From the NCBI GenBank assembly GCA_000331305.1, contig KB217478.1, forward strand, positions 64,544 to 112,543: a stretch of 48,000 nucleotides of DNA. Direction: 5' to 3'. Positions 1 through 48,000 of the stretch are shown piece by piece (within the stretch, counting starts at the first letter, position 1; each line of letters starts with the position of its first letter). The position numbers were made by a program, and so were the translations under genes. Under the pieces are notes generated by a model, which was not told where the DNA came from, searched no databases, and saw only the letters and a list, made by a program, of their open reading frames with translations. Source of the DNA: Calothrix sp. PCC 7103. Lineage in GTDB: Bacteria; Cyanobacteriota; Cyanobacteriia; Cyanobacteriales; Nostocaceae.

Positions 1-234
1 ATTTGTAATTGCATTCACCGAATCGAAAAATACTAATTCCAATCTTTCACGAGAATAGTTACCTTCGGTATACAATGCTAACGGTAAATAATAAGCAGTA
101 AGAGCATTGATTATCAGTGCTGTTTTGTCATGAGACCGATGCAAAGTTTTATTTTGGATGTAACTAAGTAACTTTGCGTTGTCTGAATCTAATCTTGGCT
201 GATGGCGCCATTTAAAATCTGTTATTGTACCCAT
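1..234 (-). CDS. partial CDS (first 78 codons, runs off the window start); hypothetical protein placed like a ParR-type adaptor downstream of the ParM-like gene
   Basis: My own minus-strand translation from ATG at 234-232 gives MGTITDFKWRHQPRLDSDNAKLLSYIQNKTLHRSHDKTALIINALTAYYLPLALYTEGNYSRERLELVFFDSVNAITN, with no stop before position 1. It is absent from the ORF track because it has no stop in the window. The function is positional inference only. Confidence 0.4.
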   Translation of the reverse strand, partial: MGTITDFKWRHQPRLDSDNAKLLSYIQNKTLHRSHDKTALIINALTAYYLPLALYTEGNYSRERLELVFFDSVNAITN

Positions 235-240
235 AATTTC

Positions 241-412
241 AGGAGTGGGAGAGTGGAGGAGTGGGAGACAAGGGGAGTGGGAGAGTGGGGGACAAGGAGA
301 GCGAAGATAAAAGAATGGAAAATGATGTTTCGTCTTAATAACTTTTCTCCCACTCTCCCACTCTCCCACTCTCCCACTCCTCCACTCTCCCACTCCCCTT
401 GTCTCCCACTCC
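241..412. repeat. GGGRGAGT-octamer inverted-repeat element A (G-rich arm 241-300, C-rich arm 347-412)
   Basis: ggagtgggagagtggaggagtgggagacaaggggagtgggagagtggggg is followed about 45 bp later by its C-rich complement, ctcccactctcccactctcccactcctccactctcccactcccc. The same unit family recurs at 5507-5654 and 21566-21745. Confidence 0.8.
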
Positions 413-1522
413 TTTACTGATTGCTTTAACTTTAATACGGTGGTAAACAGATAGTGCCCAAACATCAGCAAGACGATTACCTAACCATTTTTCATTGAGA
501 CTTTGCGGAATTTCAACACCGCCATGCCACTCAATAGGTGTTACAGGAAACATGTCATCAAGTTCTGTACGTAGATAATCAGCCGTACCTCCACAAATAA
601 TTAACTCGTCTAATTCGTTAGGATGTGGCAATACTTCTTTTAACCAGTTCGCTAGCGTAATTACATACTCTGCTCTCGAAGTACTTACAGCGGATATTAT
701 TTTCTCGATATCAGAATCTTGATGACTGGTTGAGGTGCAAATACTGTAGAAGTGTTGGGGTTTTAGCTCAAAAGCAGCATTGACTATCGCTTGAGTTAAT
801 TGCTCAACTTCTAATCCTGATGTGCGCTCCATAACCTTTTCAACCATTTTCGTCATACCTAAATTAGTAGTTTTACCCCGGTTCAAAATACCGCGTCGAG
901 AAATTATTACCGATGCGTTACGGTATCCCAACATCACGATTGCGATAACCTTACGTCGAATTGCCTCGCCTGTGTTCTTGCAGTACATCGCATAAATCCC
1001 GGCGCCTTCTGGAAAACATTCATAGCCAATCAATCTCGCGTTTAAAATTCCTGTTGGTGTATCAAACTCAATCAAAGCATCCTTGAGCATTGGTTTGAGT
1101 AAAGCTGAATCTTCAAATTCTCCTGGTGGTAGTAGCAGCGCCAGAGATATTTGAAAAGATTCAGGTAATTTATACTTCTGCTTTATCACCCATACCGCAG
1201 CCAGCGTTTTGTATACAGCTAACTCAAATTTTCGTGGTCTTAATCCAGGTGTGGCGCCGTAACTACTACGTGCCAAGTAACCAACTGCTCGATAATCTTC
1301 ACCTATCCCCACCCAAGCTGTATTTTCTGGATAAGCATTACCCAAGTTCCGAGTTTGAAATCCAAGCGATGTTTTCGTTGCTTCAATAACGGCAGGTTCC
1401 ATCCATATTGAGTAAGGTCTACCTCCTTTAATTTGTACAATTCCCTTTGTTCCACTCCCACCAAAGTCCAGCGTTAATATAACGTCTGGTAACTGCTCTA
1501 GGTTTAATCTGCTCATAAGCAC
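335..1522 (-). CDS. actin-like ATPase, ParM/StbA-like plasmid segregation protein; C-terminus is translated repeat element
   Basis: Actin-fold phosphate-1 motif LTLDFGGSGTKG, a central GYRNASVI segment and the adenosine motif ICGGTADYL. Size is about 390 aa. The last ~25 aa (GVGDKGSGRVEEWESGRVGEWEKSY) are encoded by repeat element A. The start is probably the ATG at 1516. Confidence 0.55.
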   Translation of the reverse strand: MLMSRLNLEQLPDVILTLDFGGSGTKGIVQIKGGRPYSIWMEPAVIEATKTSLGFQTRNLGNAYPENTAWVGIGEDYRAVGYLARSSYGATPGLRPRKFELAVYKTLAAVWVIKQKYKLPESFQISLALLLPPGEFEDSALLKPMLKDALIEFDTPTGILNARLIGYECFPEGAGIYAMYCKNTGEAIRRKVIAIVMLGYRNASVIISRRGILNRGKTTNLGMTKMVEKVMERTSGLEVEQLTQAIVNAAFELKPQHFYSICTSTSHQDSDIEKIISAVSTSRAEYVITLANWLKEVLPHPNELDELIICGGTADYLRTELDDMFPVTPIEWHGGVEIPQSLNEKWLGNRLADVWALSVYHRIKVKAISKGVGDKGSGRVEEWESGRVGEWEKSY

Positions 1523-1626
1523 TCACAACAGTTGATGGCATTTGTCTCACATTAGCAGCATCAAATGAAAAAGTGAATGCGACTGGAGTCTAGATTTTTT
1601 ATATGACCCTAGTTGTACAACTATTT

Positions 1627-3086: not shown

Positions 3087-3512
3087 ATGTCAGCAAAACA
3101 AAAACAACAAACGGTTAGATTTGAGATGCTGCTTACTAAAGAGCAGAATGACTCTTTGGTACAACAAGCGGATTCTCTGGGTATCAGTAAAGCGGAGTTA
3201 ATTAGGCGCCGAATAGCAAAATCCCGCATCAAGAGTATTCCACAGGTAAACTGGCAATGCTACTGGCAGTTATTAAAGATTGCCGAAGATATTAAGTGTA
3301 TTGCTCAAACTCAGAATAATGCTCTGGATAATGGTTCAATACCGCAAGCTATTGACCCTATCATGATTGAGGAATTAATGAAACAAATTTCTCAAATACG
3401 ATTACATTTAATTCTCGGCGCCAAGTCTGCCACCGAGGAGTATTCCCGTGGCGAGCTTGGCGCCAACGCCTCAAATATACAACAGGAGGAAAACGATGAT
3501 TGGGAAGGTTAA
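3087..3512 (+). CDS. MobC-like ribbon-helix-helix mobilisation accessory protein
   Basis: N-terminus KQQTVRFEMLLTKEQNDSLVQQADSLGISKAELIRRRI (RHH pattern) lies directly upstream of, and overlaps, the relaxase gene. The ATG at 3087 is preferred over the TTG at 3060. Confidence 0.6.
   Translation: MSAKQKQQTVRFEMLLTKEQNDSLVQQADSLGISKAELIRRRIAKSRIKSIPQVNWQCYWQLLKIAEDIKCIAQTQNNALDNGSIPQAIDPIMIEELMKQISQIRLHLILGAKSATEEYSRGELGANASNIQQEENDDWEG
3417..3464. repeat. 48-bp GGCGCC-bounded palindromic element, copy 1 (in-frame inside the MobC-like CDS)
   Basis: GGCGCCAAGTCTGCCACCGAGGAGTATTCCCGTGGCGAGCTTGGCGCC. It is an imperfect hairpin and is translated as GAKSATEEYSRGELGA. Confidence 0.75.
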
Positions 3513-4518
3513 AAAAGGTAAACATTTCGCTGGGTTAACAAAATATATTTTGGAAAAAGAAGAAGCGGAACTTGTCTGCACTAACCTTGCGGGAGAGACT
3601 CCTATTGATTTTTATAGACAATTGACGGCGACTCAACAACTTAACCCCAGAGTTAAGTCTCCTGTTAGCCATATCAGTATCAGTTTTGCACAGGGGGAAA
3701 AACCACCAACACAACAATTACAAGAAATTGTAAAAGGCGCCCTTACAGGTATGGGATTTGACAAAAACCTATATTTTGCTGCTACTCATGATGACTGTGA
3801 ACACTTTCACATACATATAGGCGCCAGTCGTATCAATATTGATGGTGAGTGTGTATCTGACTGGTACGATAAGCGGCGATTAGAAAAAGTTTTGAGAAAT
3901 TTAGAATCGCAGTTTAATTTGACACCAGTACCATGTTCTTGGGAAGTAGAACACGCGGCGCCGAATTGTGGTCAGAAACGGCGAATGCGACGAGAACAAG
4001 AAGAGTTTAAAAAAGGGTTACGGCGCCAAGCTCGCCACGGGGAGTATCCCCGGTGGCAGACTTGGCGCCAACAAGCAAATTGTAGTGCATTAGAAAAAAT
4101 CCAAAATACAATAGAAGCTGTCATTAAACCAGAGATGACAATGACTCAATTCGTTCATCAACTTGAGTTAGAAGGTGTAAAAACTCAATTCAAAGTTGAG
4201 AATGATGGGGTAATACAAGGTATCTCTTACTCAGTAGGCTCTGTTGCTTTCCAGGCAAGTAAATTAGGTAGAAACACAAAAGCCTGCACAATTAAAGGAC
4301 TTTTAGCACGAGGTGTCAAAGTTAACTTGGAACAAGATGTAGATGCAATTGTGCTTCGTACTAATCACACAGATTTGTCAGATAAGTTGATTGATAAAAT
4401 CAAGCATCATCCTAACAATTTAGATTTAAATACTTCAGCCCCAAATAATCCGACGCAAACAGCATTGACGCTTGAAAGTAATTTACGTCAGCGCCAGCTT
4501 GGGCTAGAACTTAATTGA
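3496..4518 (+). CDS. relaxase / mobilisation nuclease (MobA/VirD2-type histidine-triad relaxase)
   Basis: N-terminal relaxase domain with HISISF and the HxDx..HxH motif ATHDDCEHFHIHIGASRIN. The ATG at 3496 is preceded by AGGAGG 8 nt upstream. The ORF-track start at 3448 is probably too early. Confidence 0.8.
   Translation: MIGKVKKGKHFAGLTKYILEKEEAELVCTNLAGETPIDFYRQLTATQQLNPRVKSPVSHISISFAQGEKPPTQQLQEIVKGALTGMGFDKNLYFAATHDDCEHFHIHIGASRINIDGECVSDWYDKRRLEKVLRNLESQFNLTPVPCSWEVEHAAPNCGQKRRMRREQEEFKKGLRRQARHGEYPRWQTWRQQANCSALEKIQNTIEAVIKPEMTMTQFVHQLELEGVKTQFKVENDGVIQGISYSVGSVAFQASKLGRNTKACTIKGLLARGVKVNLEQDVDAIVLRTNHTDLSDKLIDKIKHHPNNLDLNTSAPNNPTQTALTLESNLRQRQLGLELN
4022..4069. repeat. 48-bp GGCGCC-bounded palindromic element, copy 2 (in-frame inside the relaxase CDS, inverted relative to copy 1)
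   Basis: GGCGCCAAGCTCGCCACGGGGAGTATCCCCGGTGGCAGACTTGGCGCC. It equals the reverse complement of copy 1 over 20 nt on the left and 19 nt on the right, and differs only in the central 9 nt. Confidence 0.75.
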
Positions 4519-6900: not shown

Positions 6901-8700
6901 TTACCAAACTTCTTCTTGTTCATGGGTAACTAACTGAATTTCCTCAGTTTGGCTACTAACAGTGGACGGCGCCAAAAGTTGGGAAGCGATGTGTTTTCTC
7001 AAATCAATAGCAGCATCTAACTGATTGATATCAACTTGAGGGGAACGTGCAATTAGTCGTGGACAAAGTTGCTGCTCCCAAAGTTCTTCACTTTTTATGA
7101 TTCGATTGATGTCTGATTGGGGAATAGGAATTGTTAATGGGTAAGGAATAGAACCCTCCCAAGCGGATGAGTAGCCAGGATTGGTAATAACACACTTACC
7201 TTGCGGGAAGCGCATAATCTCATCAGGAGTTATAATAGGCATTGCCTGTAAATTGTCGGTCATTGTTATGGTTTGACCATCTTTAGAATTGCTGATAGAT
7301 TTATTTTTAACAATAATGTCCTTGTTCCCAAAGGACTGAGAAAATTTTTCCGCAGTAGAATAATTGGCAGGGTTATATAAAATTTTGGTACTACAGGCGC
7401 TGGTAATAGCAGCAGCTAAATTTTCTCCATATGCCGAAGCTAGCTGTTCAAGCGACTGAACACCCAATACAAAACAGGCGCCGTTACTTCTATATTCATT
7501 AATCCAATGGGGCAATGCTTTAAGGTACAATGACGGAAGCTCATCAATGAAAATTCCAATTGGGTCAGTACGTGGTGTAGATAAGTTGCTAACGATTGTC
7601 ATATGTAAAGCAGCAGCTAGCAGTGGCCCAACTACGTCGCGTCTAGCATCATCTAATTTAAAAATTAGTATTTGCCGCCCTGATAGTTTGGTAGGTATAG
7701 TACTTTTACCAATAAAACTGGGAAGGAGAGAACGTTGAATGAAACCAGAAAATATTCCCACGGTGGTTGTGTCGATGCTGGCTATAGTTTTTTCGCTATC
7801 TCTAGCTTTGAGATATTGTTGAAACGAAGCTGCAACCCAACGAGAAACTTTTCCTGCTTGTACAGCACTTTGCAGTTTATTAGTAAATTCATCAATCGAC
7901 TGAATACAGTAAACCGTTGCTAAATCTGGACAATCACTGCTTTTAGCTAACTGAATTAAGGCTTTTGCGAGTAAGTCGGCAGCCTTGGAGAAAAACTCAT
8001 CGCCTTTACCACTACCACCAGCGTTTGCATTAATAACTTGTGCAATTTGTGCTGCTGTCACTGCGTCTTCTTGGTTCTCCATGAAATCTAGAGGATTTAT
8101 TACTTCACTATAAGGTTCACCGGGGGCAAATATTCGGACATCATACCCGTACCTAGCTGCAAGCGGCGCCAGTAACTTCATTTGGTCGCCCTTTTTATCG
8201 TAAACAATCAAAGGAAACCCTTGTATCATGCAACTTTCAGCCATACGGTCAATCGTGCCATAAGTTTTTCCTGAACCTGGGGCACCTAATACGAGCGTGG
8301 AACGTTCAGCATGAGGAATCCAAACCGTAGGTGAGGCGCCAAGAAATGTTTGAAAAACGGCGCCTGGTTCTATGAGATTTCCAGAAAACCAGTAACGGGG
8401 AGAACCGCACCAAAAGCAAACTTTATTGTGCTTACGCTCTCGAATTTGTTTTAAGGCTAGATTTGTTGCTGCTACTTTTTCTGTTCGCCCTACAATTCTT
8501 CCGGTAGAAATCTTGCCACTTTTACCATTTCCAAATTGGCTCAACAAAATTAGAAATACTAAACCCCCTAACATCAAGAGCGCTTCAGGATTTGCAAAGG
8601 TTTGAAACAATCCTTGAATATCAAAGCCTGATTTGTAAGAGTTTGCTGGCTGAGTCACTACTTGATACGTAGTTTCATTTGATATAAATTCATGTTTCAT
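6901..8700 (-). CDS. type IV secretion coupling protein (VirD4/TraG/TraD family)
   Basis: N-terminal TM helix (LLMLGGLVFLILL), Walker A LGAPGSGKTYGT, Walker B-like IGIFIDELPSL. About 600 aa. It is the last gene of a leftward operon with overlapping stop/start codons. Confidence 0.8.
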   Translation of the reverse strand: MKHEFISNETTYQVVTQPANSYKSGFDIQGLFQTFANPEALLMLGGLVFLILLSQFGNGKSGKISTGRIVGRTEKVAATNLALKQIRERKHNKVCFWCGSPRYWFSGNLIEPGAVFQTFLGASPTVWIPHAERSTLVLGAPGSGKTYGTIDRMAESCMIQGFPLIVYDKKGDQMKLLAPLAARYGYDVRIFAPGEPYSEVINPLDFMENQEDAVTAAQIAQVINANAGGSGKGDEFFSKAADLLAKALIQLAKSSDCPDLATVYCIQSIDEFTNKLQSAVQAGKVSRWVAASFQQYLKARDSEKTIASIDTTTVGIFSGFIQRSLLPSFIGKSTIPTKLSGRQILIFKLDDARRDVVGPLLAAALHMTIVSNLSTPRTDPIGIFIDELPSLYLKALPHWINEYRSNGACFVLGVQSLEQLASAYGENLAAAITSACSTKILYNPANYSTAEKFSQSFGNKDIIVKNKSISNSKDGQTITMTDNLQAMPIITPDEIMRFPQGKCVITNPGYSSAWEGSIPYPLTIPIPQSDINRIIKSEELWEQQLCPRLIARSPQVDINQLDAAIDLRKHIASQLLAPSTVSSQTEEIQLVTHEQEEVW

Positions 8701-27607: not shown

Positions 27608-27730
27608 GGACTTACGCAAAAATTTTGTCATGCTTCACTGCGTTCAGCATCTCAGAGATTCTACCCTTCGGGAAAACTTCGTTTACACTGCGTTCAGAAT
27701 GACAGTTTTTCGTTAAAATGCGTAAGTCCT
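27608..27730. mobile_element. MITE-like element with 12-bp perfect terminal inverted repeats
   Basis: AGGACTTACGCA at 27608-27619 and its reverse complement TGCGTAAGTCCT at 27719-27730. Subterminal TGTCAT/ATGACA and an internal direct repeat CACTGCGTTCAG x2. No coding capacity. Confidence 0.5.
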
Positions 27731-28017
27731 AAGTTAGACTGTATCTCGGCTCAACCTCTTCTCGACTGGCGCCGAAAGAATTTCTAGACTACGCATCATA
27801 AAATGAAGTGTTGGTGCCGTGCGCCTAAATATTTTTCCTATTTTTTCAAAACCTGCGTAAAAACTCCCGGTCTGATTCGTACAAGGGTTTAGAGAAGTAA
27901 AGGAGTTAGACATTATGCTTTGATAAACAAGCGATAGTCTGACTATCTAATTAACTCCAAATATGCCGAGCGCTAAATATAGCCATCACTTATCAATTCT
28001 AAACACTACTCATATTT

Positions 28018-29052: not shown

Positions 29053-29061
29053 AAGAGAAAT

Positions 29062-30097: not shown

Positions 30098-30270
30098 TAA
30101 GGAACATTGACAAGGCGTTGCACAAAACAGGGCTTTTGTTTTGGACGGGTAAAGCAAAATTCATAAAATAAACTGAAAAGCATACATAAGAATAATTGAA
30201 ATGGTACTCACAATGCTAGTCTGCAAGCAAACATATTTTGTCCAAAGTCCAATCAAAAAGATTTTAGCAG

Positions 30271-36753: not shown

Positions 36754-37231
36754 TAAATTAAGTGTAAGTTTAATTTATAAAATAAAGTTGCAAGAGAGTA
36801 TATTAGGTTTTATTTATCTAATAAAACCCTGTTGATAATTACTATGAGTAGAGCAGTAGCTATCGTTCCTTTGGATTCAAGTTATTGTTACAACATACGT
36901 TTACCTCGCTGGTTATTTTTTGCTGAAATAGCACTGTCAAATAAGCGTCTCTTCCTGTAGTTTGGGGTACAGGGCACGCTTGTAGCTAATCCCAAAGCGC
37001 AAACACAATTTTCTTTGAGTTTTGCACTGAGAACTAGTTTAAACTCCAGTAGGTTAAGTAATGGTCATTTCTATGTTGGTCATTGATTAACTTAATGTAG
37101 CTGTTTTGCCTTGTGGAATAGTGTAGTCATTGGGGTGTATGTATTAGTACTTAACTACCAATGACTCTAAACAGGATTTTGGGCAAAATCCTTACACAAC
37201 GAGCTTTTAAGTCTCAGTATATTTTTAAAAC

Positions 37232-37435
37232 TCAAACCGGATTCCTATATATTGTAGTGTGATACTTTATACTTATAATTTTCTTAGTTACTGATTTTGT
37301 TTCTCCTACAGGTATATCTGTGTCTCCTTTCTGAAAATTAAGGACAATGGACTTATCCGCGTTATTGGTGAATGGAGTCTGAGTAGGTTTCACTGTTCTA
37401 TCAGTTGGGGTATCTGTATAGATTATTTTACTCAT
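37232..37435 (-). CDS. small hypothetical protein (67 aa)
   Basis: ORF only, upstream of the NRPS on the same strand. Thr/Lys-rich with no recognised motif (not MbtH-like). Confidence 0.25.
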   Translation of the reverse strand: MSKIIYTDTPTDRTVKPTQTPFTNNADKSIVLNFQKGDTDIPVGETKSVTKKIISIKYHTTIYRNPV

Positions 37436-37576
37436 ACTGGTTGCTGCTTTTTAGTTCAAGTTAAATTTCGGTTAAATATCCGATTGATACATAAATTTAT
37501 TTGCATTTTTGATGCTATGCATTCAAGGCAAGAGGCCGCCATTGGCGACCGTCTACACATCTATATGATTATAGTT

Positions 37577-38194
37577 TTATGCTGCAATTTGGTTTTGAGT
37601 TTCAAAGCTGTAACCATCACTTGGATTCCCTGTAAGTACCACTGTCAGCTTTTTCAAACCTTCTAGAGAAATTTCAGTAAAATTATCGCTCATTACAGCA
37701 GAACTGATAATGTCACCCTCTTCATATTCAGAAGTTATTCCAAAATATATCTTAGGGTGAAAAACAAATTCTGCTTTTTGATTTTTACCAACTTGCTCCT
37801 TCCTAGCAATTACTTTTTTATCCTTCAGGGCAATTACACAAATACCTCCGTCAGTGCTAACCTTGTTAAGCACATCAAATTCGTTAGTGGTTTTGTTTGT
37901 ACCCGTTTGTTTCAAACTAAAACCTCCAGGAGTGTCTTCAAGCGCATAGTTTTTACCATTTTCTACACTTATAGGCAAAGTTCCGCTGCTACCATTATCC
38001 CATGTTACTTGAGCCTCGGTATCAATAGTGTATTTAAACTTATGCCAAGAATTGTATCCAACGTTTTTTATTACCTGCCATGCAGTGGAGTAAGCAGAAA
38101 AATTTGATTCTGCTTGTTGCATGAATACCACTATTTCAGGGCGATCGTTATCATCGGACTGGTTGAGGAATGTAATTTCTACATCAATAGACAT
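37577..38194 (-). CDS. 205-aa protein of unknown function, paralogue 1
   Basis: The internal ATG at 38194 is preceded by AAGGAAG and gives exactly 205 aa, the same length as 39622..40239. Shared blocks: STAWQVIKN(V/I)GYN(S/C)WHKF, N(E/Q)FDV(L/I)N, KA(E/V)FVF(H/N)PK(I/L)YF, SEYE.G.II, FTEI.L. Confidence 0.6.
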   Translation of the reverse strand: MSIDVEITFLNQSDDNDRPEIVVFMQQAESNFSAYSTAWQVIKNVGYNSWHKFKYTIDTEAQVTWDNGSSGTLPISVENGKNYALEDTPGGFSLKQTGTNKTTNEFDVLNKVSTDGGICVIALKDKKVIARKEQVGKNQKAEFVFHPKIYFGITSEYEEGDIISSAVMSDNFTEISLEGLKKLTVVLTGNPSDGYSFETQNQIAA

Positions 38195-38841
38195 TGATTT
38201 ATCTTCCTTAAAGTTATTGGAGTTTTTTGTTCTAAAGGTAAGGGTTGTAGATAATATTGCTTGAATTACAAAAATATATTCAGATTTGGAATTTATCAAT
38301 ATATTTAGAGATAAGTTAATCCAATCTATCTATAATCTAAATCTAGCTCAAGCATAAATTATCTTTTTTCTACTTACAGCAGCCATTTTGTACAAGTTGC
38401 TGTAGGTCTTTTGCCCCTTTTAGTAGCTTTGGAAAGCAAAACAGAAACTAAAAGGTTAGCAAGCTGAAAAAATGTCCGTGAATAAATTTAGGCATTTAAC
38501 AAGGACACCTTTTCTTTTTGTGCTGTGCATGTCGAAAAGATTTATCTGCTTACCTGTATCATTTTTATTCTTAATAACACGCTCCCAACACCGAGTAATC
38601 ACTGAAATATTTAGTTTACTTGTAGCAGAGTATTTACGGAGCATCTACTAATTTTTGTTTTTTTTACTAAGTAAATATATTTAAATAGCGATAATATCCG
38701 TTTAGAACTAAGTCAAGTAGGAGGCATGTATAGAAGGAGAAAATATTTGATTTCACTTTAAGTAGGTGGGCAAAAATAAAGCACACTGGTTTTGTTCTGC
38801 TTAAAAGCGCTAAAGTCAAACTGTGAGAGGATTACAGCAGT

Positions 38842-38859
38842 TTTACATTTCGTTACATA
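38842..38859 (+). promoter_or_regulatory. HLR1-type (RpaB-box) motif 1 with conserved downstream promoter-like segment
   Basis: TTTACATT-TC-GTTACATA is a perfect match to (G/T)TTACA(T/A)(T/A)-N2-(G/T)TTACA(T/A)(T/A). It is followed by TTCCATTTACCTACTTATATACAAA. Confidence 0.5.
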
Positions 38860-39116
38860 GTGGTAAATTTTTCCATTTACCTACTTATATACAAAGTTAT
38901 ATGTCCAATGTTAGATATTGTTTCGTGATTGCAATGCCTAACCCTGAATACAAGCAATAAGCTCCTGATACTTCGTCAGCATATTTACGTATAACTGAGG
39001 TTTAGCCTCTTTTATAAGTAGTTGGACGCAATTAAGTAAGTTGGCATTAAAAATCACAACTGTGTTTAGTTTTGTAAGTAAGCTAAAACCCAGCCAAATT
39101 AGGCTTTTACTTTAAG

Positions 39117-39134
39117 TTTACATTCTGTTACATA
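39117..39134 (+). promoter_or_regulatory. HLR1-type (RpaB-box) motif 2 with conserved downstream promoter-like segment
   Basis: TTTACATT-CT-GTTACATA is a perfect HLR1 match. It is followed by TTCCACTCACCTACCTAATTACAAA and lies 275 bp downstream of motif 1. Confidence 0.5.
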
Positions 39135-39621
39135 GTTTAGTTTATTTCCACTCACCTACCTAATTACAAAAATCTGAGATAGGATTCCTGCCAAACAAAG
39201 AAACAGTATAAAATTAATCTGGTATGTTTAATTAACTTAATAATCGTGTAATATTGATTTAACAAACTACATATAGGCAAATTGCTAGTATCCATATTTC
39301 GGGCAAATGTATGTGTACTAGTCCTGTCACTTTTTAGGTCTAGTTCCGAAATTAAGGTTAAGCCCGCATCTGATGTTACAATTTAACCAGTAAAATTAAC
39401 TATGACTGGACATAATTTAACTTGTTCAAATTTAAACTGTTTTGGTATAGAGTGTATTGTGCTGGGGGTCATAGTCTAAAGTATTAAAATTTTTCTGCAA
39501 TATATATTCTAGCAGTTTTTGACCCCTCTTTTCTCAGATTTTATGATAAATCCGGGATATACCCTTGCATATTTTATCGTAACTTTCTTAAAACATAAAA
39601 CTGAATTTTTATCAGTAATTT

Positions 39622-40239
39622 CTATAGATTATTGTAACAAGTCATAAATTTATAACCTTTGGCTTCATTACCTCGAAGAGTAATTGATAAACTTGAACCC
39701 TTAATTAAATCAATTTCTGTAAATATTGTGCTGTTGAGAGGTAGGCAAATAATTTTACCGATTTCATATTCAGAGCAAATTGCAAAATATAATTTTGGAT
39801 TGAATACGAATACTGCTTTTTGCTTACTAGCAATCTGATGTTGTACTTGAATTGGATTACTACCCTTAAGAACTATAACAGAAATATTTTCCGACATACT
39901 AATATTATTAATAACATCAAACTGATTAGAACCATTATTATATTTTGTTTGCACTAAAGACAAATTTCCATTATTTTTTTCAAAAGAATAGCTTGCACCT
40001 AACATAATATTCTTGCTTAAAATTTCAGTTTTACCATTGTTACTCCATAGAATTAAAACCGAGATTTTAAGAGGATATACAAACTTGTGCCAACAGTTAT
40101 AACCTATATTTTTTATTACCTGCCATGCGGTTGAGCTTGCAGAGAAAGGTAATGTAGAAGGCTGCATATAAATAAGAATAGTTGAGTTATTTTGGTAATG
40201 AGACTTATTAACGTATGTGATTTTAATATCAGTATGCAT
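39622..40239 (-). CDS. 205-aa protein of unknown function, paralogue 2
   Basis: Collinear similarity to 37577..38194 (roughly 35-40% identity by eye) and identical length. More AT-rich and Asn/Ile-rich. Confidence 0.6.
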   Translation of the reverse strand: MHTDIKITYVNKSHYQNNSTILIYMQPSTLPFSASSTAWQVIKNIGYNCWHKFVYPLKISVLILWSNNGKTEILSKNIMLGASYSFEKNNGNLSLVQTKYNNGSNQFDVINNISMSENISVIVLKGSNPIQVQHQIASKQKAVFVFNPKLYFAICSEYEIGKIICLPLNSTIFTEIDLIKGSSLSITLRGNEAKGYKFMTCYNNL

Positions 40240-40603
40240 AATAGTTATTGATTATCTTTGTATTCACTCTATGCTAGTTGGAACTAAAACATGCTAAAAT
40301 AGCGGTTAATATTGCATAAATTATATTTGTAAATTACAGATGAGATGGGAGATTTTACTTTATACTACCAAAGTGTAAACCTTTATTACATGAAGATTTG
40401 TAAAAATTATATATAGCAGTCTTAAATCATTCGTAAAGAAGAAAACAAGCTGAAATGCTTGTACATAACTTTCGACCTACGTATTTTTTACACTTTGACT
40501 AGGGTTGTAATCTTACGATAAAGTGTCAGATTAGTATATGGGTTCGCGCATTTATATATAGTCTCAAATCTTGAAATTGCTGAAAGTCTTGTCAAAAGCT
40601 AAT

Positions 40604-40634
40604 TTTACATTGTAGGCTGTGTCTACAATGTAAA
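40604..40634. repeat. perfect 12-bp inverted repeat with 7-nt loop upstream of paralogue 2
   Basis: TTTACATTGTAG-gctgtgt-CTACAATGTAAA. It contains the same TTTACATT word as the HLR1 half-sites, but in inverted arrangement. Confidence 0.4.
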
Positions 40635-41593
40635 TAATTAGGAGCATTTAATAATTCAAGTACAAACCAAAAACCCTATGAAGCTGGCTTTTGGGCATAG
40701 TAGTAAAAACTCTGATAGCTTGTGCTAAAATTATAACTTACCAAAATTGTCAAATTTCTGCGTACATTAAATAAACTGCTTTGATTAAACAGTTAAAAAA
40801 TACACGACACCACAAAACTCAATGTTTCTCTAAATCTGGCTCTTCTTCTAGAGGAAGGTAGCGTTGAATTGTACTAATTACTCTCAATTCTGCAATATCT
40901 TCTGGCTTCCAGGTGTCATAAAGTGCAAGATGAATGCCCTCACTACGTCTTCCTACTTGTCCATTTAGAGCAGAACAGTTTAGCAATTCATAAGTACCAA
41001 ACAAAACCTGTACTGTACCAGTCAGGTTAGCAATTTATTTAATTCAGTTCATTTGTTGTAGCATTTGGTGTCCACCAGATACTTCATCAATGTAAAATTA
41101 CTCATTTTCAGTAAAACTACTGAACCAGTTAGCAAGTAGCTAGATTTAAACTGACTAGTTGAAGGCTGGCGGCGCTTGCAACTCTGTTGAAATAGCACTA
41201 ACTGCCCCAAGTGAATATTTATCTGAGTAATCAGACATCGAATCAAAGGAAAGCAATTCAAGTATTATCGGCTGTAAACTAGGCGATGGTTAGTTGCTGG
41301 TGCGTTGAGGCAACGAACGGTGTGTGAAAGGCAGCCTGCACCTATTTTGGCTAGGGCACAATTTGATGAAGAAATTGGAAGTTGGGGGAATTCCTGTCTG
41401 GCGGTGTTCTGGATGCAACAACAACCCCTTGTGGGTAAAGGATGGGGAGAATTTCTGCTACCGTCCCGTGTTCCTCCTTTGTATCGTTTTTCCTATTTTC
41501 AATTCTTTGTCAAGAATCTGTGGGGATGATGATGTGGGTTTGTTTCTTTTGAGTCAAACTTCCTCAAATCAAGTAAAATAAGGAGCTGAAAAG

Positions 41594-41950
41594 ATGTTAA
41601 AAATTTTAAAAAGGTTGGTAAGGTTAACTGTAGTTACCGGAATTTCCATCATGGTACTGGTTCTTAGTTTTGGAAACCCAGCTAATGCAGCTGACTATCA
41701 TGGTGGAGGAGTAACGCGCGACGGACAGAAGACGGCGGACACAGTGGATGTACTAGTGCTTACCCCAGGAGAATTTACCAAACAAATATGTAACACGGGT
41801 AGTAATGGAATATTGACACTCAAAGCACCGCCATCCGGGACGAATTACACTCAAGGAACTATTTTGCAATACGCAGCAACAGGCGGACTACGCTGCAAAC
41901 TAACTGTCACCAAAATGATAGGACCATCAAAATATAACGTGACAACGTGA
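41594..41950 (+). CDS. small secreted protein (118 aa), unknown function
   Basis: Sec-type signal peptide (LTVVTGISIMVLVLSFGNPANA/ADY) and a GGAG Shine-Dalgarno 8 nt upstream of the ATG. Confidence 0.55.
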   Translation: MLKILKRLVRLTVVTGISIMVLVLSFGNPANAADYHGGGVTRDGQKTADTVDVLVLTPGEFTKQICNTGSNGILTLKAPPSGTNYTQGTILQYAATGGLRCKLTVTKMIGPSKYNVTT

Positions 41951-42873
41951 CAAGTAGCGAAATTTAATTGGCTGATGAAGCCAGAAAAAGAGCAGGGAAG
42001 AAACGATAACTAGACACCCCTCTCCTCACTTATCTCCACCAATGGCGAGCTTACTCCCCAATGCGACTCACCGTCGCACCTAGCTCATAAAGCCAAGGGA
42101 ACCAGCTAGCACTTTTGCGATAATGTCCCCATACTGAAGTTTTAGTGAATCCCTTGGACAAATTCCTCCTTACAATATATCGAAAGTCATTAAACAAATA
42201 ATGCCATCTTTAATACTTCCTTTGATATTTCCCCAACTGAATGTGTAGCGGGCTTTCATCAAGTGGATTCCCCTTGATGCGATCGCCCAAAGGAAATCAT
42301 GACTAACTTTTCCCACCCTCGTCTTCTAAGCAACTTGCCAACCGGAGCCTAGCTACTGCAATTTTAACCAACCGCGCCACAGTACCTGCAACATCGGTGT
42401 TGTGCAGTTACAGGTAATTTTCAACATTAAGCGCGATAAATTTGATTATATTCTAATCGTTAATTCAGTTATCTCCGGTTTCCAGATTAATACCAAAATT
42501 TTGCAAAACTACTATCATATCAACTGAAATAATAAGATAATTAATGATTGAAAAAATGGCTTTGCGAGTAGCTAAATCTAGACCAGAACTATTTAATAGT
42601 CGATTTTTATTAATACTTAATTAGGCAATCTATTAAAAAAAATAACAGATTGAAAAGCTAAATTTGTTATAAAGCCGAGTTGATGGAAATTTTTACACTT
42701 CCAATTGGAAAGAGCGTTGTTGTAAATAAATGAAATAAGTTTTTAAGTAATTGCTGATTTTGAGCAGAAAACAAATGTTTGCTTAATTCCATAGCACTTG
42801 TAAAATTAAAATTGAAAAATTTATCAACTTATCATCGTTAAGCTCGTCTAGTTTTAATTATGGGGATTTCCCC

Positions 42874-42894
42874 GTTCCTCGTTCCCTGTTCCCT
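42874..42894. repeat. heptamer tandem repeat GTTCC(T/C)(C/T) x3 just downstream of the ABC exporter stop
   Basis: gttcctc gttccct gttccct is preceded by the small hairpin ggggatttcccc. It resembles the STRR style of cyanobacterial heptamer repeats, but the unit is not one of the named STRR1-3. Confidence 0.4.
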
Positions 42895-42896
42895 CT

Positions 42897-45617
42897 TTAA
42901 TTAACTAAAGTTTCTGTCTTGAACTTGCTCTGCTTCGCCATTAACTTAGCAAACAATCCCTCTTGGTTAGCTAATTCCTCAAACGTACCTTGCTGCACAA
43001 CTCTACCCGCTTCAATCACATAAATCCGGTCAGCATTACGAATCGTACTCAAACGGTGAGCAATGGCAATCCTTGTTACCTTCAACCGTTCCATACTCTG
43101 ACTCACCATTGCCTGTGTCTTATTATCCAGCGCGCTCGTCGCCTCATCAAACAAAATAATCCTCGGTTTCAACACCAACGCGCGTGCAATTAATAACCGT
43201 TGTCTTTGTCCCCCCGATAAATTCATCCCACCTTCAGAAATTACCGTATGCATTCCCATTGGCATATTTTCCACATCATCGGCAAACCCAGCCATTCTTG
43301 CAGCATCCCAAGCTTCCTCCATACTAATTAAGGCGCCACCACTAATATTTTCAAACACAGTTTCGCTATTAATACGCCCATTTTGCAACACCACTCCTAA
43401 CTGGCGCCGTACAGCAGAAACATCCAACCCAGCTAAATCTTGCCCATCATAGTACACCGTTCCCTGTTCTGGAATATCAAATCCCAACAGCATCCGGTAA
43501 ATAGTAGACTTACCACTACCACTTGGACCTACCAGCGCAATAAACTCTCCTGGTTTTGCCTCGATAGTCACATCATCCAAATTTAGCGGCCCATCAGTGC
43601 GGTAGCGAAACGTTACGTGGTCGAGCTTAACATACCCAGAAAGGCGCCCTGGATCAGCTTGATTTAAATTAATTTCTGGTTCTGTTTCTAAAATTGGCTT
43701 GGCATGTAACCACAACGCAGTAATATCAAGTAAATCAACCAAATTATTACTCAAACTTGTAACACCAGCAATAAACGAAGCAAACGCCGCATTAAACGCT
43801 AAAAACGTACCAGTAGATAAACCACTCCCCGCTTGCTCGGTAGCTAGTAAACTAGAAGCAATCCAAAAAGTAATAATTGGCGTAAAGCTAGATTGCAACA
43901 AATTAAACGCAGCAATCCAATCTTCAATTTGCTGGGTGCCCTGCATTAATTTAAGCTGCTTATGATAAAATCTTGCCCAGTGAGCATAAGCTCGACCCTC
44001 TGCGGCTGTAGTGCGGAGTTTAGAAATACCTCCAATTAGCTGAATTGTCATCCCAGCTATCTCACCATCTAACTCTTCTAATGGCAATGCTTTCTGACTT
44101 TTAAAATATCCAGCAACATTCGTCACCAACACAGTTAAAATCACAACAGCAACAGCAACCCACGCTAATTGCGAACTATAAACAAACAGCAAACCTAAAT
44201 TAAATAAAGCAAAGAAACTGCTGAATAACATATCCAGCCTTTCACCACCTAATTTATCCCGGATGCGGTTAATTGCAGAAACGCGCGATAATATTTCTCC
44301 AGCAGAATATTCTCGGAAAAAAGTCAGCGGCAACTTCAGCAACCTGTCCCATATCCCAGCTTGCAAGTTGAAGACAGAGTAAGATTCCAACCGTACTAAA
44401 GCTAATCCTTGTGTTAATCGAAACAAAGACGTACCAAAAGTAGCTGCCAGTAATGCCAAAGTAAGTTGCAGCAGCAAACCTCTATCAGCATCAGGAATAG
44501 CAGTATCAATCAAAACACCAGTAACTTGGGGAACAATCATCCCAATCAAAGTCCCTGGTATACCCAAAAACAACATCGTCCGTAGTTCCTTGCCTCCCCC
44601 ACGCATCGAATACCGGAATACATTTAGTAAATTCAGTTTTGCATCCGGGAAAGGAGGATAAAACATATACGCACCCGGCGCCAGCAATTTAGCAGTACGT
44701 TCATTGACTTGAGTCCGCTTTTGCGTAACAGGATTGTAAATCTCATAATACTTATTATTTACAGGCAACAACGCCACAGGAGTTTGGTCAGCTAAATATC
44801 CTAACAACGGTCCACAATCTGCCCTAAACCAGCGTTCAGAAAGCAATACACGCCTAATTCGCATTCGTGAAGCGCGCGCAATTGCTTCGAGAGGGTCTTT
44901 CACCCGCTTCATATCTTCCGACCTTGCAGGTGGACGAATGGGAATACCCATAGCTTTTCCAACGGCGCCAGCAGCTACTAACAAAGGGTCGCCAGTTGCA
45001 GCAATTGATAACTGCTGGGTTCCTAACAGCGAAACAAAATCAGTAACTGCTGTTGTCGTCAACTGCTGATTTAAACGTTCGCGCGCTTGAAACTGCACTA
45101 AATTTTGCTGTTGTGCAGACTGTTCAAGTTCATGCAAGCTCGAAATAAAGCCTTGCTGGAAATTCTTGAGAACAACACGCACTGTTTGCCAGGGCATTTG
45201 ACTCGAAATTTCAGGCGCCGGGAAAGGTATGGCTGTTAACTCAAATACCGAACTCAATCGCTCAAACCAAGTTATTATTAAATGAATACTGTTAAAAGAA
45301 CTTGTTGTTACATTTGCTTGGGTGGCGCCTTCATCTAACGAGCGTAAATTTAACTGTAATAAGCGAGTTTCTTTTGTGGCAACAGCCAAAATACAAGTGG
45401 AACCTAACCCTACTTCAATTCCAAACACTGCTTCCCCTGTCTCTACTCCAAATAAATAACGCCGCCCGCTTTGTAATACTGCATCTTGTATTTTCCCTGC
45501 ATACACAGTCATTGACCCAGACTCTATCACCCATAAACTTTCTGGATCATCTAATAGTAATACTTCATTTTCTGCGATGATTTTAAAGGAATTTTGTGTG
45601 TCAGATTTAATATTCAT
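42897..45617 (-). CDS. ABC exporter, fused cNMP-binding-like N-domain + degenerate peptidase-like domain + TMD + NBD (NHLP-bacteriocin-type permease/ATPase subunit)
   Basis: N-terminal beta-roll-like region (LLLDDPESLWVIESGSMTVYAGK...RRYLFGVETGEAVFG), six-helix TMD, Walker A GPSGSGKST, signature LSGGQRQRL, Walker B ILFDEATSALD. The NHLP-family assignment rests on architecture and the adjacent second exporter. Confidence 0.8.
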   Translation of the reverse strand: MNIKSDTQNSFKIIAENEVLLLDDPESLWVIESGSMTVYAGKIQDAVLQSGRRYLFGVETGEAVFGIEVGLGSTCILAVATKETRLLQLNLRSLDEGATQANVTTSSFNSIHLIITWFERLSSVFELTAIPFPAPEISSQMPWQTVRVVLKNFQQGFISSLHELEQSAQQQNLVQFQARERLNQQLTTTAVTDFVSLLGTQQLSIAATGDPLLVAAGAVGKAMGIPIRPPARSEDMKRVKDPLEAIARASRMRIRRVLLSERWFRADCGPLLGYLADQTPVALLPVNNKYYEIYNPVTQKRTQVNERTAKLLAPGAYMFYPPFPDAKLNLLNVFRYSMRGGGKELRTMLFLGIPGTLIGMIVPQVTGVLIDTAIPDADRGLLLQLTLALLAATFGTSLFRLTQGLALVRLESYSVFNLQAGIWDRLLKLPLTFFREYSAGEILSRVSAINRIRDKLGGERLDMLFSSFFALFNLGLLFVYSSQLAWVAVAVVILTVLVTNVAGYFKSQKALPLEELDGEIAGMTIQLIGGISKLRTTAAEGRAYAHWARFYHKQLKLMQGTQQIEDWIAAFNLLQSSFTPIITFWIASSLLATEQAGSGLSTGTFLAFNAAFASFIAGVTSLSNNLVDLLDITALWLHAKPILETEPEINLNQADPGRLSGYVKLDHVTFRYRTDGPLNLDDVTIEAKPGEFIALVGPSGSGKSTIYRMLLGFDIPEQGTVYYDGQDLAGLDVSAVRRQLGVVLQNGRINSETVFENISGGALISMEEAWDAARMAGFADDVENMPMGMHTVISEGGMNLSGGQRQRLLIARALVLKPRIILFDEATSALDNKTQAMVSQSMERLKVTRIAIAHRLSTIRNADRIYVIEAGRVVQQGTFEELANQEGLFAKLMAKQSKFKTETLVN

Positions 45618-46120
45618 GTTTATATTGGTGTATTGAACCGCAAAGGCGCAAAGGAAGAGGGGGAAAGTGTAGATGCAATTTTTTAAACTAACTACTATAA
45701 TGTCATTTTGCCCAGAAAGCTTTGTAAACTAACACCAGCAATGAAGAAATTTGATTATGGGAAGTGGCGCCTGTGTTGAGATTATTATGTATTTTCAGCT
45801 ACGTTCCTACCCGCATAGTATTTAAGTACTATGCTAATAGCAGAAGTCCTCTTAAGAGGACTAAATATACTGCAAACGGGTAAAATTTGAACTTATGTCA
45901 TGCTGAGGTACGTAAACGCAGTTTGGAAGCAAGCTTTAGACGATGAAAGTACTTATGTAATAGAAGTTGCCCAGAAAGCGATTAATGATTTGCAGCAATT
46001 TGAAAGTTTACTGGAAGCTCGTTAATAGCTAGCGATGTAACCGTTTAAGGGGCGCCTGCCGCTAACGAACTTCGCTTAGAAAATTTGTTAGGTAGTTATG
46101 GGCAATAGCTGCTACCAGAT

Positions 46121-46618
46121 TTATTCCTTACTTTTTTGGAAAGCTTGTATTTTTTCAGAAAGCGTTGTTACTGTCTCACCAGTGAATAATTGCTCTCTAA
46201 TTTTGAGATAGTCATCCTTGCCGATCTGAATTATATATTTGTCACCTTTGTCAAGCTGATATTCTTCAATCAGCTTTCCATCTTCAGCCCATTGTTTTTT
46301 ACGAATAATAATACCGTTCTTGTATAAACATTCTATTTTTAATCGCCCACTTTCATACAATTCTTTACATAAACCATTTAAAGCTCCTGATTCATAGTAA
46401 TACTCATAGTGTAAATGTCCATCGGGATACCATTCCCTTGAAATTCCTTGTAAAATACCACCCACATAAGAATTTTCTGCTAATAGCTGACCACTAGTAA
46501 AATTCTCATAAGCAATACCCGTAAAATCTTGTCCCTCGTAAGTGTAGACATGATAATCAGAATAATCAAGTTCATCTATAAGTACTCTCATAAAATAACC
46601 AACTCCAATAACGAACAA
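46121..46618 (-). CDS. MORN-repeat-variant / YwqK-family protein
   Basis: Repeated G.xxG.xxxWYxxG-type units (GILQGISREWYPDGHLHYEYYYESGALNGLCKELYESGRLKIECLYKNG). The start may be the internal ATG (MRVLIDE). Confidence 0.55.
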   Translation of the reverse strand: MFVIGVGYFMRVLIDELDYSDYHVYTYEGQDFTGIAYENFTSGQLLAENSYVGGILQGISREWYPDGHLHYEYYYESGALNGLCKELYESGRLKIECLYKNGIIIRKKQWAEDGKLIEEYQLDKGDKYIIQIGKDDYLKIREQLFTGETVTTLSEKIQAFQKSKE

Positions 46619-46654
46619 TTCTTATTGTAACGTTTTGCCTCTTCTTGATAATTT

Positions 46655-48000
46655 CTAATGTTCATCCTCTTCTTCCTCCTCACTGCGAACAAGTTCAGCG
46701 TAAAATCCACCCATTCTTACTAGTTCTTCGTGTGTGCCTCGTTGGACAACTACACCTTTATCCAGCACAATAATTTCGTCACAATCACGAATACTGCTCA
46801 GACGGTGCGCTACTATTAAGCAACTGCATCCCCGTTGCCGTAGGTTTTCGTAAATAATTTGTTCGGTCTCTCCATCTAAGGCGCTTGTTGCCTCATCTAA
46901 TATTAGAATACTGGGGTTATTTATCAACGACCGGGCAATTTCTAACCTTTGTCGTTGTCCACCACTCAAATTGACGCCACCCTCTAGCAATTCACCACTA
47001 TAACCACCTGGTAATGCCATAATTACATCTTGAATACGCGCGTCAATACACGCACGGCGAATTTGAGAATCAGAAACGGTAGAATCCCAAAGCGTTAAGT
47101 TATCACGCACTGTCCCAGAAAATAAGAAAATTTCTTGCTCGACTGTGGCTATTGAGTTGACTAATATAGAACGAGGTATTTCCTGACGGGGGATAACGTC
47201 AAATAAAATTTCACCCGACCAAGGTTCATAAAGTCCTCCGACTAATTTGGCTATGGTGGATTTTCCTGAACCACTGCCACCTACTAATGCAACTCTTTGT
47301 CCTGGTTGGATGACACAACTAAAGTTTTCTACAAGTGGTTTACTGACTTTCGCGTAGCCAAATGTGATGTTTCGCAGTTCGATATGTCCTTGAAAACGTA
47401 CATTTTGTATATTATTGCGATTATTACTGGCGCCTAATTGCGGGTCGGTTGCGTTTGCTAATACGTCATCTAACCGCATGACGTTACCACTAAGTGTTTG
47501 CAGCATGGCGCCAAATCCCATTAATTGATTGACAGGTTCTTGGAAGCTTGCCATCAAACTTTGAAATGCGACTAGCATCCCGATGGTCATTTTCCCATCC
47601 ATTACTTGCCAACCGCCTATTGCTAAAATCAACATAACTGTTAAACCAGTTAGTAGTGTAGGCAGTACAAATAATATTTCATTGATTACAGCAATATCTG
47701 TGAAAGCATTCCAACTTTTAGATATATAACCTGCCCAACGAGCAAACATATCAGATTCTAATGCTGATGCTTTGAGTGTTTCAATACTCTGGATGCCAGC
47801 AATTGCTACACCATCGGCTTTACCATAGTCTTTGTCAGACTGCATGAAATTATCTTCTCGCCAGCGCTCAACCCACTGAAGTATCAACACATTTAATACT
47901 GCAAAAGACACACCAATAGCAGTTAACACCCAGTTGTAAGCAAACATTACTAACCCGTAGAATGCAGCCATTACCAAATTAATTAATGTACTTGCCATCG
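46655..48000 (-). CDS. partial ABC exporter (C-terminal TMD + NBD; N-terminus beyond the window), likely the peptidase-containing partner of the NHLP-type pair
   Basis: Walker A GGSGSGKST, signature LSGGQRQRL, Walker B ILILDEATSALD, acidic tail EEEEEDEH. The reading frame is open to the window edge. Confidence 0.8.
   Translation of the reverse strand, partial: MASTLINLVMAAFYGLVMFAYNWVLTAIGVSFAVLNVLILQWVERWREDNFMQSDKDYGKADGVAIAGIQSIETLKASALESDMFARWAGYISKSWNAFTDIAVINEILFVLPTLLTGLTVMLILAIGGWQVMDGKMTIGMLVAFQSLMASFQEPVNQLMGFGAMLQTLSGNVMRLDDVLANATDPQLGASNNRNNIQNVRFQGHIELRNITFGYAKVSKPLVENFSCVIQPGQRVALVGGSGSGKSTIAKLVGGLYEPWSGEILFDVIPRQEIPRSILVNSIATVEQEIFLFSGTVRDNLTLWDSTVSDSQIRRACIDARIQDVIMALPGGYSGELLEGGVNLSGGQRQRLEIARSLINNPSILILDEATSALDGETEQIIYENLRQRGCSCLIVAHRLSSIRDCDEIIVLDKGVVVQRGTHEELVRMGGFYAELVRSEEEEEDEH

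Follow-up and report, generated by a model that had tools for sequence, protein, structure and literature searches.

The 48 kb stretch of DNA analysed here, called the window throughout (39.1% G+C; positions 64,544 to 112,543 of contig KB217478.1, assembly GCA_000331305.1), comes from the cyanobacterium Calothrix sp. PCC 7103 and carries the palindromic hexamer GGCGCC in great excess. Its left 27 kb hold the genes of a conjugative element, which encode a NikA-like protein, a MOB (MobA/VirD2) relaxase, a TraG/TrwB-type coupling protein, an AAA ATPase, a TrbI/VirB10-like protein and a VirB4-like ATPase. This element makes up most of a GGCGCC-saturated region of resident DNA (1–27800) with 61 sites, about 92% identical to loci in Calothrix PCC 7716 and Dulcicalothrix desertica PCC 7102. 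It is followed by an island with two sites and no GGCGCC excess (27801–42890), which includes a non-ribosomal peptide synthetase (NRPS) gene, and then by GGCGCC-rich resident chromosomal DNA outside the conjugative element (42891–48000; 11 sites), with two NHLP-bacteriocin-type ATP-binding cassette (ABC) exporters and a MORN-repeat gene. While a preliminary description of the same DNA spoke of a replicon, implying a plasmid, the window is chromosomal: an 8.79-Mb NCBI contig encodes a protein with 100% identity to its ABC transporter (UniParc UPI0003079180), and PCC 7716 and Calothrix NIES-4105 both carry the homologous element in their chromosomes. Therefore, the mobilisation and type IV secretion genes of the window represent an integrated conjugative element. 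Logan contigs of run SRR610348 match the window with 100% identity, while a megablast search of the PLSDB plasmids gave no relevant hit and an exact 49-mer was absent from the GTDB species representatives.

An exact count gives 74 GGCGCC sites in the window, the same number as in the preliminary description, whose listed start positions are all correct. From base composition only 2.7 sites are expected, and first- and second-order Markov models predict 3.7 and 3.9, in line with the earlier rough estimate of 2–4. Dinucleotide-preserving shuffles of the window (n = 100) contain 3.23 ± 1.75 sites with a maximum of 7. The third- and fourth-order Markov expectations are high, at 16.4 and 39.1, because the excess of GGCGC and GCGCC is already inside those models; a Markov comparison had been suggested as a check, and the observed count exceeds the expectation at every order tested from first to fourth. 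When synonymous codons are shuffled in the open reading frames (ORFs) outside the island, a procedure that preserves both protein sequences and codon usage, 2.92 ± 1.61 sites result instead of the 64 observed. GGCGCC is the most over-represented palindromic hexamer of the window, with an excess of 20- to 25-fold overall and an observed-to-expected ratio of about 40 outside the island, corresponding to 1540 sites per Mb for the whole window and 2200 per Mb (2.2 per kb) for the DNA outside the island. The canonical highly iterated palindrome of cyanobacteria, the octamer HIP1 (GCGATCGC), occurs once in these 48 kb, within the island at 42279–42286, as had been noted, and thus does not approach the 15- to 300-fold over-representation of GCGATCGC by which HIP1 genomes are recognised.

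The sites are found in all three codon phases (37, 14 and 15 in phases 0, 1 and 2), in genes of both strands (57 minus, 9 plus) and between genes (8), a placement already recognised in the preliminary description. Outside the island, their density is 2.29 per kb in coding and 1.60 per kb in non-coding DNA. No extended flanking consensus or repeat unit was found around the 74 sites, and the unit is the bare hexamer that had been proposed; the sole deviation is a scarcity of G directly before the hexamer (position −1), equivalently of C directly after it (7% against a background of 20%). One phase had been misread, as the relaxase frame at site 4022 is cGG-CGC-Caa (Arg-Arg-Gln) and not g-GCG-CC. 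The spacing between sites is exponential, with a coefficient of variation of 0.92 and Kolmogorov-Smirnov p values of 0.3–0.99, and there is no regular spacing or repulsion between sites down to distances of 19–42 bp. The earlier statement that GGCGCC is iterated across positions 1–48000 holds for the resident DNA and fails for the segment from 27.8 to 42.9 kb, which contains 2 of the 74 sites. DNA uptake sequences, uptake signal sequences and Chi sites are likewise short, lineage-specific and strongly over-represented, and such a role has been proposed for HIP1, but they are non-palindromic, 8–12 bases long and biased in strand or orientation. GGCGCC, a hexamer without conserved flanks, is not an oriented signal of this kind because a palindrome cannot have an orientation.

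The same family of conjugative elements occurs in other hosts, and a protein-guided scan limited to one genome per species located 80 loci with a related coupling protein. The five loci nearest to the window are of the Dulcicalothrix type and belong to PCC 7716 (98% amino-acid identity of the coupling protein; chromosome), D. desertica PCC 7102 (97%; whole-genome shotgun contig), NIES-4105 (91%; chromosome), the metagenome-assembled genome (MAG) of Calothrix FI2-JRJ7 (83%; metagenome-assembled contig) and a second copy in PCC 7102 (82%; on the same contig as the first). Together these 106 kb contain 191 GGCGCC sites against 5.0 expected and no HIP1 against 0.5 expected, whereas the 75 loci of other cyanobacteria (1.24 Mb) contain 4 GGCGCC sites against 117 expected and 574 copies of HIP1 against 9. 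One element family thus has opposite motif content according to its host, so that GGCGCC must be ascribed to the host rather than to the element. This bears out the alternate-HIP host that had been postulated, as the nearest coupling-protein relatives all lie in GGCGCC-rich, HIP1-free loci. The trait is common to at least five species-level genomes, those of PCC 7716, PCC 7102, NIES-4105, the FI2-JRJ7 MAG and the host of the window. Metagenome contigs from the ENA that are 95.5% identical to the conjugative element of the window have 51–52 GGCGCC sites in 21.6 kb and no GATC.

The excess also extends beyond the element. The ABC-transporter DNA of the window shows it, and so does a chromosomal locus of NIES-4105, where 1.3 sites are expected and 32 occur. 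In 150 kb of NIES-4105 plasmid1, GGCGCC ranks first among hexamers by observed-to-expected ratio (150 sites against 7–10 expected). The first 14 kb of the NIES-4105 chromosomal locus (L088), which is orthologous to positions 42891–48000 of the window, contain 29 of these sites.

GGCGCC has been described as the alternate HIP of Calothrix PCC 7103 and of Calothrix D253 fragments, in which HIP1 is not over-represented (Elhai 2015, Life 5:921, PMC4390886), and the core of the present finding is thus already published. The same study reported for PCC 7103 that GATC occurs at 16% of expectation, that GACGTC is strongly and GACGCC/GGCGTC moderately depleted, that the CGATCG methyltransferase gene is truncated and that there are two GrCGyC methyltransferases, with no recognisable GGCGCC-specific (NarI-type) enzyme; alternate HIPs as a class were placed at 1000–2000 sites per Mb, and exceptional HIPs were described as sporadic and not distributed in clades (Elhai 2015, PMC4390886). 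Every sequence-level PCC 7103 signature of that work was found in the window. An excess of an order of magnitude, a density of the reported size, near absence of HIP1, a bare motif independent of frame and strand, depletion of the other GrCGyC sequences and host-wide occurrence were all observed, the last of these judged from the element, the flank of the window, the NIES-4105 chromosomal locus and 150 kb of plasmid1. The excess in the window is therefore almost certainly the host-wide GGCGCC HIP already known from the PCC 7103 / Dulcicalothrix lineage. The bare hexamer, the density, the HIP1, GATC and GACGTC patterns and the lineage are the same as those described by Elhai, with no essential difference. 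What is added here is that the trait occurs in several species-level genomes, against the remark on sporadic, non-clade occurrence, and that it reaches 2.2 sites per kb with random spacing, beyond the proposed value of about one per kb.

A full-text literature search returned no other paper treating GGCGCC as a cyanobacterial HIP. The HIP1 papers of 2018 and 2026 do not mention PCC 7103 or the Dulcicalothrix lineage, and a 2026 preprint linking HIP1 to “T4SS” mentions neither Calothrix nor GGCGCC nor conjugation. Within the literature searched, we did not find descriptions of the sharing of the trait among several genomes, of codon-pair saturation, of an amino-acid footprint, of convergence, of random spacing at more than two sites per kb, of CpG-centred decay, or of GGCGCC-free islands bearing GATC. 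HIP1, like GGCGCC, is a palindrome rich in G and C that occurs in every codon phase as well as between genes. HIP1 is linked to cytosine methylation and is kept at homologous codons even in distant homologues: the HIP1 at alignment column 1359 of the coupling-protein gene is common to homologues with 51–55% amino-acid identity. HIP1 differs in being an octamer with a GATC core and in its methyltransferases, DmtA and DmtC.

Codon pairs that permit GGCGCC are close to being saturated in resident DNA. In the ORFs outside the island, 35 of 49 Gly-Ala pairs (71%) are written GGC-GCC, and in a separate count codon usage predicts about 1.2 such pairs where 33 of 47 Gly-Ala pairs are found to be GGC-GCC. 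Ala-Pro is written G-GCG-CC in 16 of 31 contexts. Two conserved Gly-Ala codon pairs of the coupling-protein gene (8335–8364, minus strand; sites 8335 and 8359) illustrate this, both being GGC-GCC; in HIP1-host orthologues the dipeptide is kept as GGA-GCA or GGT-GCA (27–28 of 28), while GGCGCC stands there in the Dulcicalothrix-type copies. When 75 coupling-protein genes are aligned by codon, the GGCGCC sites of the Dulcicalothrix-type copies fall in shared columns, and the peptides at such columns (Gly-Ala and Leu-Ala-Pro) are kept in HIP1-host orthologues as GGT-GCA, GGA-GCA and CTC-GCA-CCA. Conversely, the HIP1 that other hosts carry as CAG CGA TCG CTT reads CAA CGT TCT CTC in the window, where it has been erased by synonymous changes.

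The effect goes beyond synonymous change. For the 36 GGCGCC sites with at least three HIP1-host orthologues, the encoded peptide is that of the majority of these orthologues in 13. When each alignment position is counted once and the window is compared with the HIP1-host consensus, Gly-Ala is found only in the window at 14 positions and only in the consensus at 2 (p = 0.004), and Ala-Pro at 10 and 3 positions, respectively. The control dipeptides are balanced, with 6 positions against 7 for Ala-Gly, 6 against 5 for Pro-Ala, 7 against 6 for Gly-Ser and 15 against 16 for Ser-Gly. The proteins of the window have gained Gly-Ala and Ala-Pro dipeptides relative to their orthologues.

GGCGCC sites are kept at the same codons across copies with 70–79% DNA identity. 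A neighbour-joining tree of the coupling protein, which carries no support values, separates two Dulcicalothrix element lineages, one with the window, PCC 7716, PCC 7102 copy a and NIES-4105, the other with PCC 7102 copy b and FI2-JRJ7. Each lineage has closer neighbours among the copies of HIP1 hosts (Pelatocladus, Scytonema and an uncultured Calothrix) than in the other lineage. If this tree is right, the GGCGCC codons shared by the two non-sister lineages would be convergent.

Turnover of the sites can be followed in the copies of the window, PCC 7716 and PCC 7102 (about 92% DNA identity), which have 30 GGCGCC sites in common. By our own count of the three-copy comparison, 10 of the 19 single-step variants aligned to GGCGCC sites are GGTGCC or GGCACC, and by our own count too, 10 of the 13 transitions separating orthologous sites fall at the central CpG. 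GGTGCC/GGCACC is also the only enriched one-step neighbour, with 53 occurrences against 21–27 expected in 132 kb and 63 against 23–28 in plasmid1. This pattern is the expectation for deamination of a methylated internal cytosine and would, indirectly, support the internal-C methylation of Elhai's model. At the same time, GACGCC/GGCGTC is depleted, with 3 occurrences against 8.4 expected in the window, 5 against 21 in the 132 kb and 3 against 23 in plasmid1, and GACGTC is absent from the window and occurs twice in NIES-4105 plasmid1 against 18.6 expected.

The island differs from the resident DNA on either side in motif content and in composition. Its two GGCGCC sites, at 32457 and 33178, compare with about one expected from composition, and the binomial probability of finding so few of the 74 sites in it is 2e-10. 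Its genes comprise an SbnA-like PALP gene, a split ornithine cyclodeaminase gene, a 2160-aa two-module NRPS and, in AT-rich DNA, a pair of paralogues without assigned function. Of the 17 GATC copies of the window, 13 lie in the island, the other 33 kb having 4 against 116 expected; all three copies of CGATCG and the only HIP1 are there too. One of its 8 Gly-Ala pairs is written GGCGCC, against the 35 of 49 elsewhere, and none of its 10 Ala-Pro contexts matches GGCGCC. The G+C content is 41–44% between 28 and 36 kb compared with about 38% in resident DNA.

A similar mosaic is found in NIES-4105. In the chromosomal locus, the NRPS part has one GGCGCC in 6.7 kb and seven GATC, while the adjoining 14 kb have one GATC beside their 29 GGCGCC sites. 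On plasmid1, GATC density falls as GGCGCC density rises when both are scored per 5 kb (Spearman rho = −0.65, p = 1e-4), and a GGCGCC-poor metal-resistance segment contains every one of the 10 HIP1 sites. The simplest reading of these sequences is that the island and these GGCGCC-poor segments would be recent imports from cyanobacteria without the GGCGCC process and that GGCGCC accumulates with residence time. It is less likely that NRPS genes are refractory to the process: the second GGCGCC-poor NRPS region in NIES-4105 would fit this explanation, but the metal-resistance segment of the plasmid is GGCGCC-poor as well, and richer in GATC and HIP1.

Within the island of the window, the SbnB-like ornithine cyclodeaminase gene adjoining the SbnA-like PALP gene is split into two ORFs (29062–29751 and 29798–30097) and is either a pseudogene or the product of a frameshift. 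The two paralogous genes (37577–38299, 240 aa; 39622–40239, 205 aa) have no Pfam match and lie in DNA of 31% G+C. In two genomes, a GGCGCC-poor NRPS cluster adjoins GGCGCC-rich NHLP-type ABC exporter genes (L088 16000–22694 on the NIES-4105 chromosome; 30271–36753 in the window), the two clusters having opposite orientation and only 69–77% identity. The NRPS/ABC-exporter locus may be an acquisition hotspot for NRPS genes.

A host-wide directional process acting through a ratchet of the type proposed by Elhai is the probable explanation of these observations as a whole. Any resident DNA would be slowly rewritten in such a way that hexamers close to GGCGCC become GGCGCC. The process would act on all three phases of coding DNA as well as on non-coding DNA, and would reach the chromosome, a plasmid and an integrated conjugative element alike. 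A cytosine methyltransferase covering GGCGCC, such as the GrCGyC enzymes of PCC 7103, would methylate the internal C, and methyl-directed repair would then favour new mutations that complete a methylatable G-meC site, giving a ratchet towards the palindrome. Loss of sites would come chiefly from meC-to-T transitions in the central CpG. Such a drive would claim almost every codon pair that can accommodate the site (Gly-Ala as GGC-GCC, Ala-Pro as G-GCG-CC) and fix amino-acid replacements at tolerant positions, whereas recently arrived DNA such as the NRPS island would still be unconverted and keep the GATC and HIP1 content of its donor. The ratchet is preferred because it joins action at every position of the hexamer, scarcity of the GrCGyC forms that are halfway to GGCGCC, indifference to coding, saturation of codon pairs and islands that depend on time. 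For methylation-linked biased repair as the actual mechanism of this ratchet, we regard the chances as about even.

A known case of methyltransferase-linked repair bias that raises the frequency of a methylated site is the enrichment of CCWGG in Escherichia coli by Dcm and the very-short-patch repair of Vsr. Very-short-patch repair in E. coli converts only T:G mismatches and depletes the deamination product, whereas in the present DNA the deamination product GGTGCC/GGCACC is enriched 2- to 2.5-fold. Sites have here also been formed from GGA-GCA and GGT-GCT, which requires transversions at several positions. Very-short-patch repair was rejected as the sole mechanism on both of these grounds.

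Several points weigh against a repair-driven ratchet, of which we infer the methylation and the repair bias as well as the recent arrival of the island, the last of these being judged from composition only. Six-frame motif scans of the window and five related loci found no DNA methyltransferase, Vsr-like or MutH-like genes, only spurious matches; the GGCGCC-specific methyltransferase postulated earlier for the host gains no support from these sequences. GGCGCC methylation in this lineage has never been reported, and neither has the base methylated by the GrCGyC enzymes (Elhai 2015, PMC4390886). In Elhai's model, sites should level off at about one per kb (Elhai 2015, PMC4390886), and the 2.2 sites per kb found here, with exponential spacing and no repulsion, are twice this cap; it follows from the density and the random spacing that saturation seemingly depends on how many permissive positions there are and not on how far away the next site is. 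In pairwise comparisons, 83–89% of GGCGCC sites are intact, against 66–69% of all hexamers, 50–72% of other all-G/C hexamers and 40–61% of NGCGCN non-sites. Equivalent conservation of HIP1 has been taken as selection and not as biased repair (Xu et al. 2018).

Selection could keep GGCGCC if the methylated palindrome had replaced HIP1 in a function such as self-recognition, uptake, Chi-like recombination or nucleoid organisation, with ordinary mutation supplying the sites. We consider this unlikely, even though the high proportion of intact sites, their retention at the same codons despite the divergence of the DNA, and the persistence of the trait in at least five species-level genomes all agree with it, as does the interpretation given to HIP1 conservation by Xu et al. 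(2018). A precedent for such a function would be Synechococcus PCC 7002, in which natural transformation increases as much as 100-fold when HIP1 is methylated (Kamoku and Nielsen preprint). A signal needed every few kb would nonetheless not be expected in 71% of Gly-Ala pairs or at randomly spaced neighbours only 19–42 bp apart, nor would it be expected to force amino-acid replacements or to be equally dense in an insertion sequence, in a defective conjugative element and in non-coding DNA. A persistent repair bias gives apparent conservation too, and the conservation data do not separate selection from such a bias.

Small mobile repeats that carry or duplicate GGCGCC are a very improbable source of the excess, although two such insertions can be seen in the window. 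A 48-bp hairpin-forming stretch with GGCGCC at both ends lies in frame in the NikA-like gene (3417–3464; predicted DNA folding energy −18.5 kcal/mol, z = −5.6), and a second copy lies in frame in the relaxase gene (4022–4069; predicted −22.7 kcal/mol, z = −7.4). The unit consists of 36 bp plus a duplicated GGCGCC, giving an insertion of 42 bp or 14 codons; the relaxase copy is also present in PCC 7716 (L002 14470–14517), while PCC 7102 has an exact empty site with a single GGCGCC (L003 14604). Two further copies on NIES-4105 plasmid1 (L090 26820–26860 and 27082–27120) have no GGCGCC ends, bringing the copies seen to four. For the small dispersed repeats (SDR) of Nostocales, HIP1 has been reported as an insertion site (Elhai et al. 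2008, quoted in Xu et al. 2018). The two 42-bp hairpin insertions with their duplicated GGCGCC resemble a small element of this kind aimed at the local HIP, and the repeat may be an SDR-like element or one like a miniature inverted-repeat transposable element; it differs from the Nostocales SDR in that only four copies were seen, with the plasmid1 pair lacking GGCGCC ends. As the source of the excess, such repeats would explain at most 2–4 of the 74 sites. Extended shared sequence bounded by insertions or deletions, the mark of a dispersed repeat, was found only for 3417–3464 and 4022–4069; the other sites have no common flanks, and most of them lie at conserved codons where the orthologues differ by point substitutions only.

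It is next to inconceivable that the sites are a by-product of codon or amino-acid usage or are binding sites specific to the element, since half of them are indeed phase-0 Gly-Ala pairs but the synonymous shuffle leaves about 2.9 of 64, three phases and both strands are used and non-coding DNA still has 1.6 per kb, while the same element family is nearly site-free elsewhere and DNA outside the element, including the chromosomal locus and the plasmid, shares the excess.

The function and origin of HIPs in cyanobacteria have been debated for about 30 years, with biased repair (Elhai 2015) set against selection (Xu et al. 2018), and recent preprints tie HIP1 to transformation. The lineage studied here is a useful test bed for this question, as one conjugative-element family is found under opposite motif regimes, codon-pair saturation is accompanied by a footprint in proteins, and a single window contains converted next to unconverted DNA. 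A wider reading, to which we give somewhat less than even credence, is that the GGCGCC drive would be a stable, clade-wide replacement of HIP1 which converts the same codons independently, changes proteins and clocks horizontal transfer through unconverted islands such as the NRPS cluster and the metal-resistance segment of the plasmid, thereby offering a natural assay of repair against selection. The roughly 30-fold purge of GGCGCC elsewhere and the roughly 30-fold purge of GATC here may, as a further part of this reading, act as reciprocal barriers to conjugation. In practical terms, the densities of GGCGCC and GATC are a cheap annotation marker for recently acquired DNA in these genomes.

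The depletion of GGCGCC in the 75 HIP1-host loci of the same conjugative-element family (L005–L081) is about 30-fold. The opposite pressure on this hexamer in the two groups of hosts may constitute a barrier to transfer.

One protein of NIES-4105 plasmid1, BAZ64391.1 (L090 14373–15095; AP018291.1 64373–65095), is annotated as a “C-5 cytosine-specific DNA methylase”. Pfam assigns no methyltransferase domain to it, and its sequence resembles that of a two-repeat protein; the annotation is probably wrong.

The conjugative element of the window is interrupted by an IS630-family (DDE_3) insertion on the minus strand (23793–24874), which contains one GGCGCC site and replaces the 5' part of the VirB4-like ATPase gene. 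It takes the place of 863 bp found in related ENA contigs (L082 and L083), so that the ATPase loses its first ~244 codons (699 aa in the window compared with 954 aa in these contigs), and it also removes the end of a 114-aa gene. Judged from these truncations, the element of the window is probably transfer-defective. No tRNA gene was found anywhere in the window. A small ORF (27221–27484, 87 aa) and an inverted repeat of about 20 bp (27601–27735) lie directly before the start of the island, where the conjugative element may conceivably end; the idea that this ORF is an excisionase-like marker of the element end was dropped as a guess, the ORF having no Pfam match.

Other short motifs of the window also deviate from expectation. 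GGCC occurs 6 times across the whole window against 70 expected, one of the six copies lying in the island, and over 20 palindromic hexamers do not occur at all, for example CTGCAG, GGTACC, TTCGAA, GCATGC and AGATCT. Avoidance of palindromes on this scale would fit a host with a heavy restriction-modification load. CGCGCG, on the other hand, is over-represented, with 25 copies against 2.7–5.9 expected, spread across both the resident and the island DNA of the window (for instance at 1943, 21837–21839, 23410–23412, 26674–26676, 28155 and 32355), and the same hexamer occurs 45 times in NIES-4105 plasmid1 against 14 expected.

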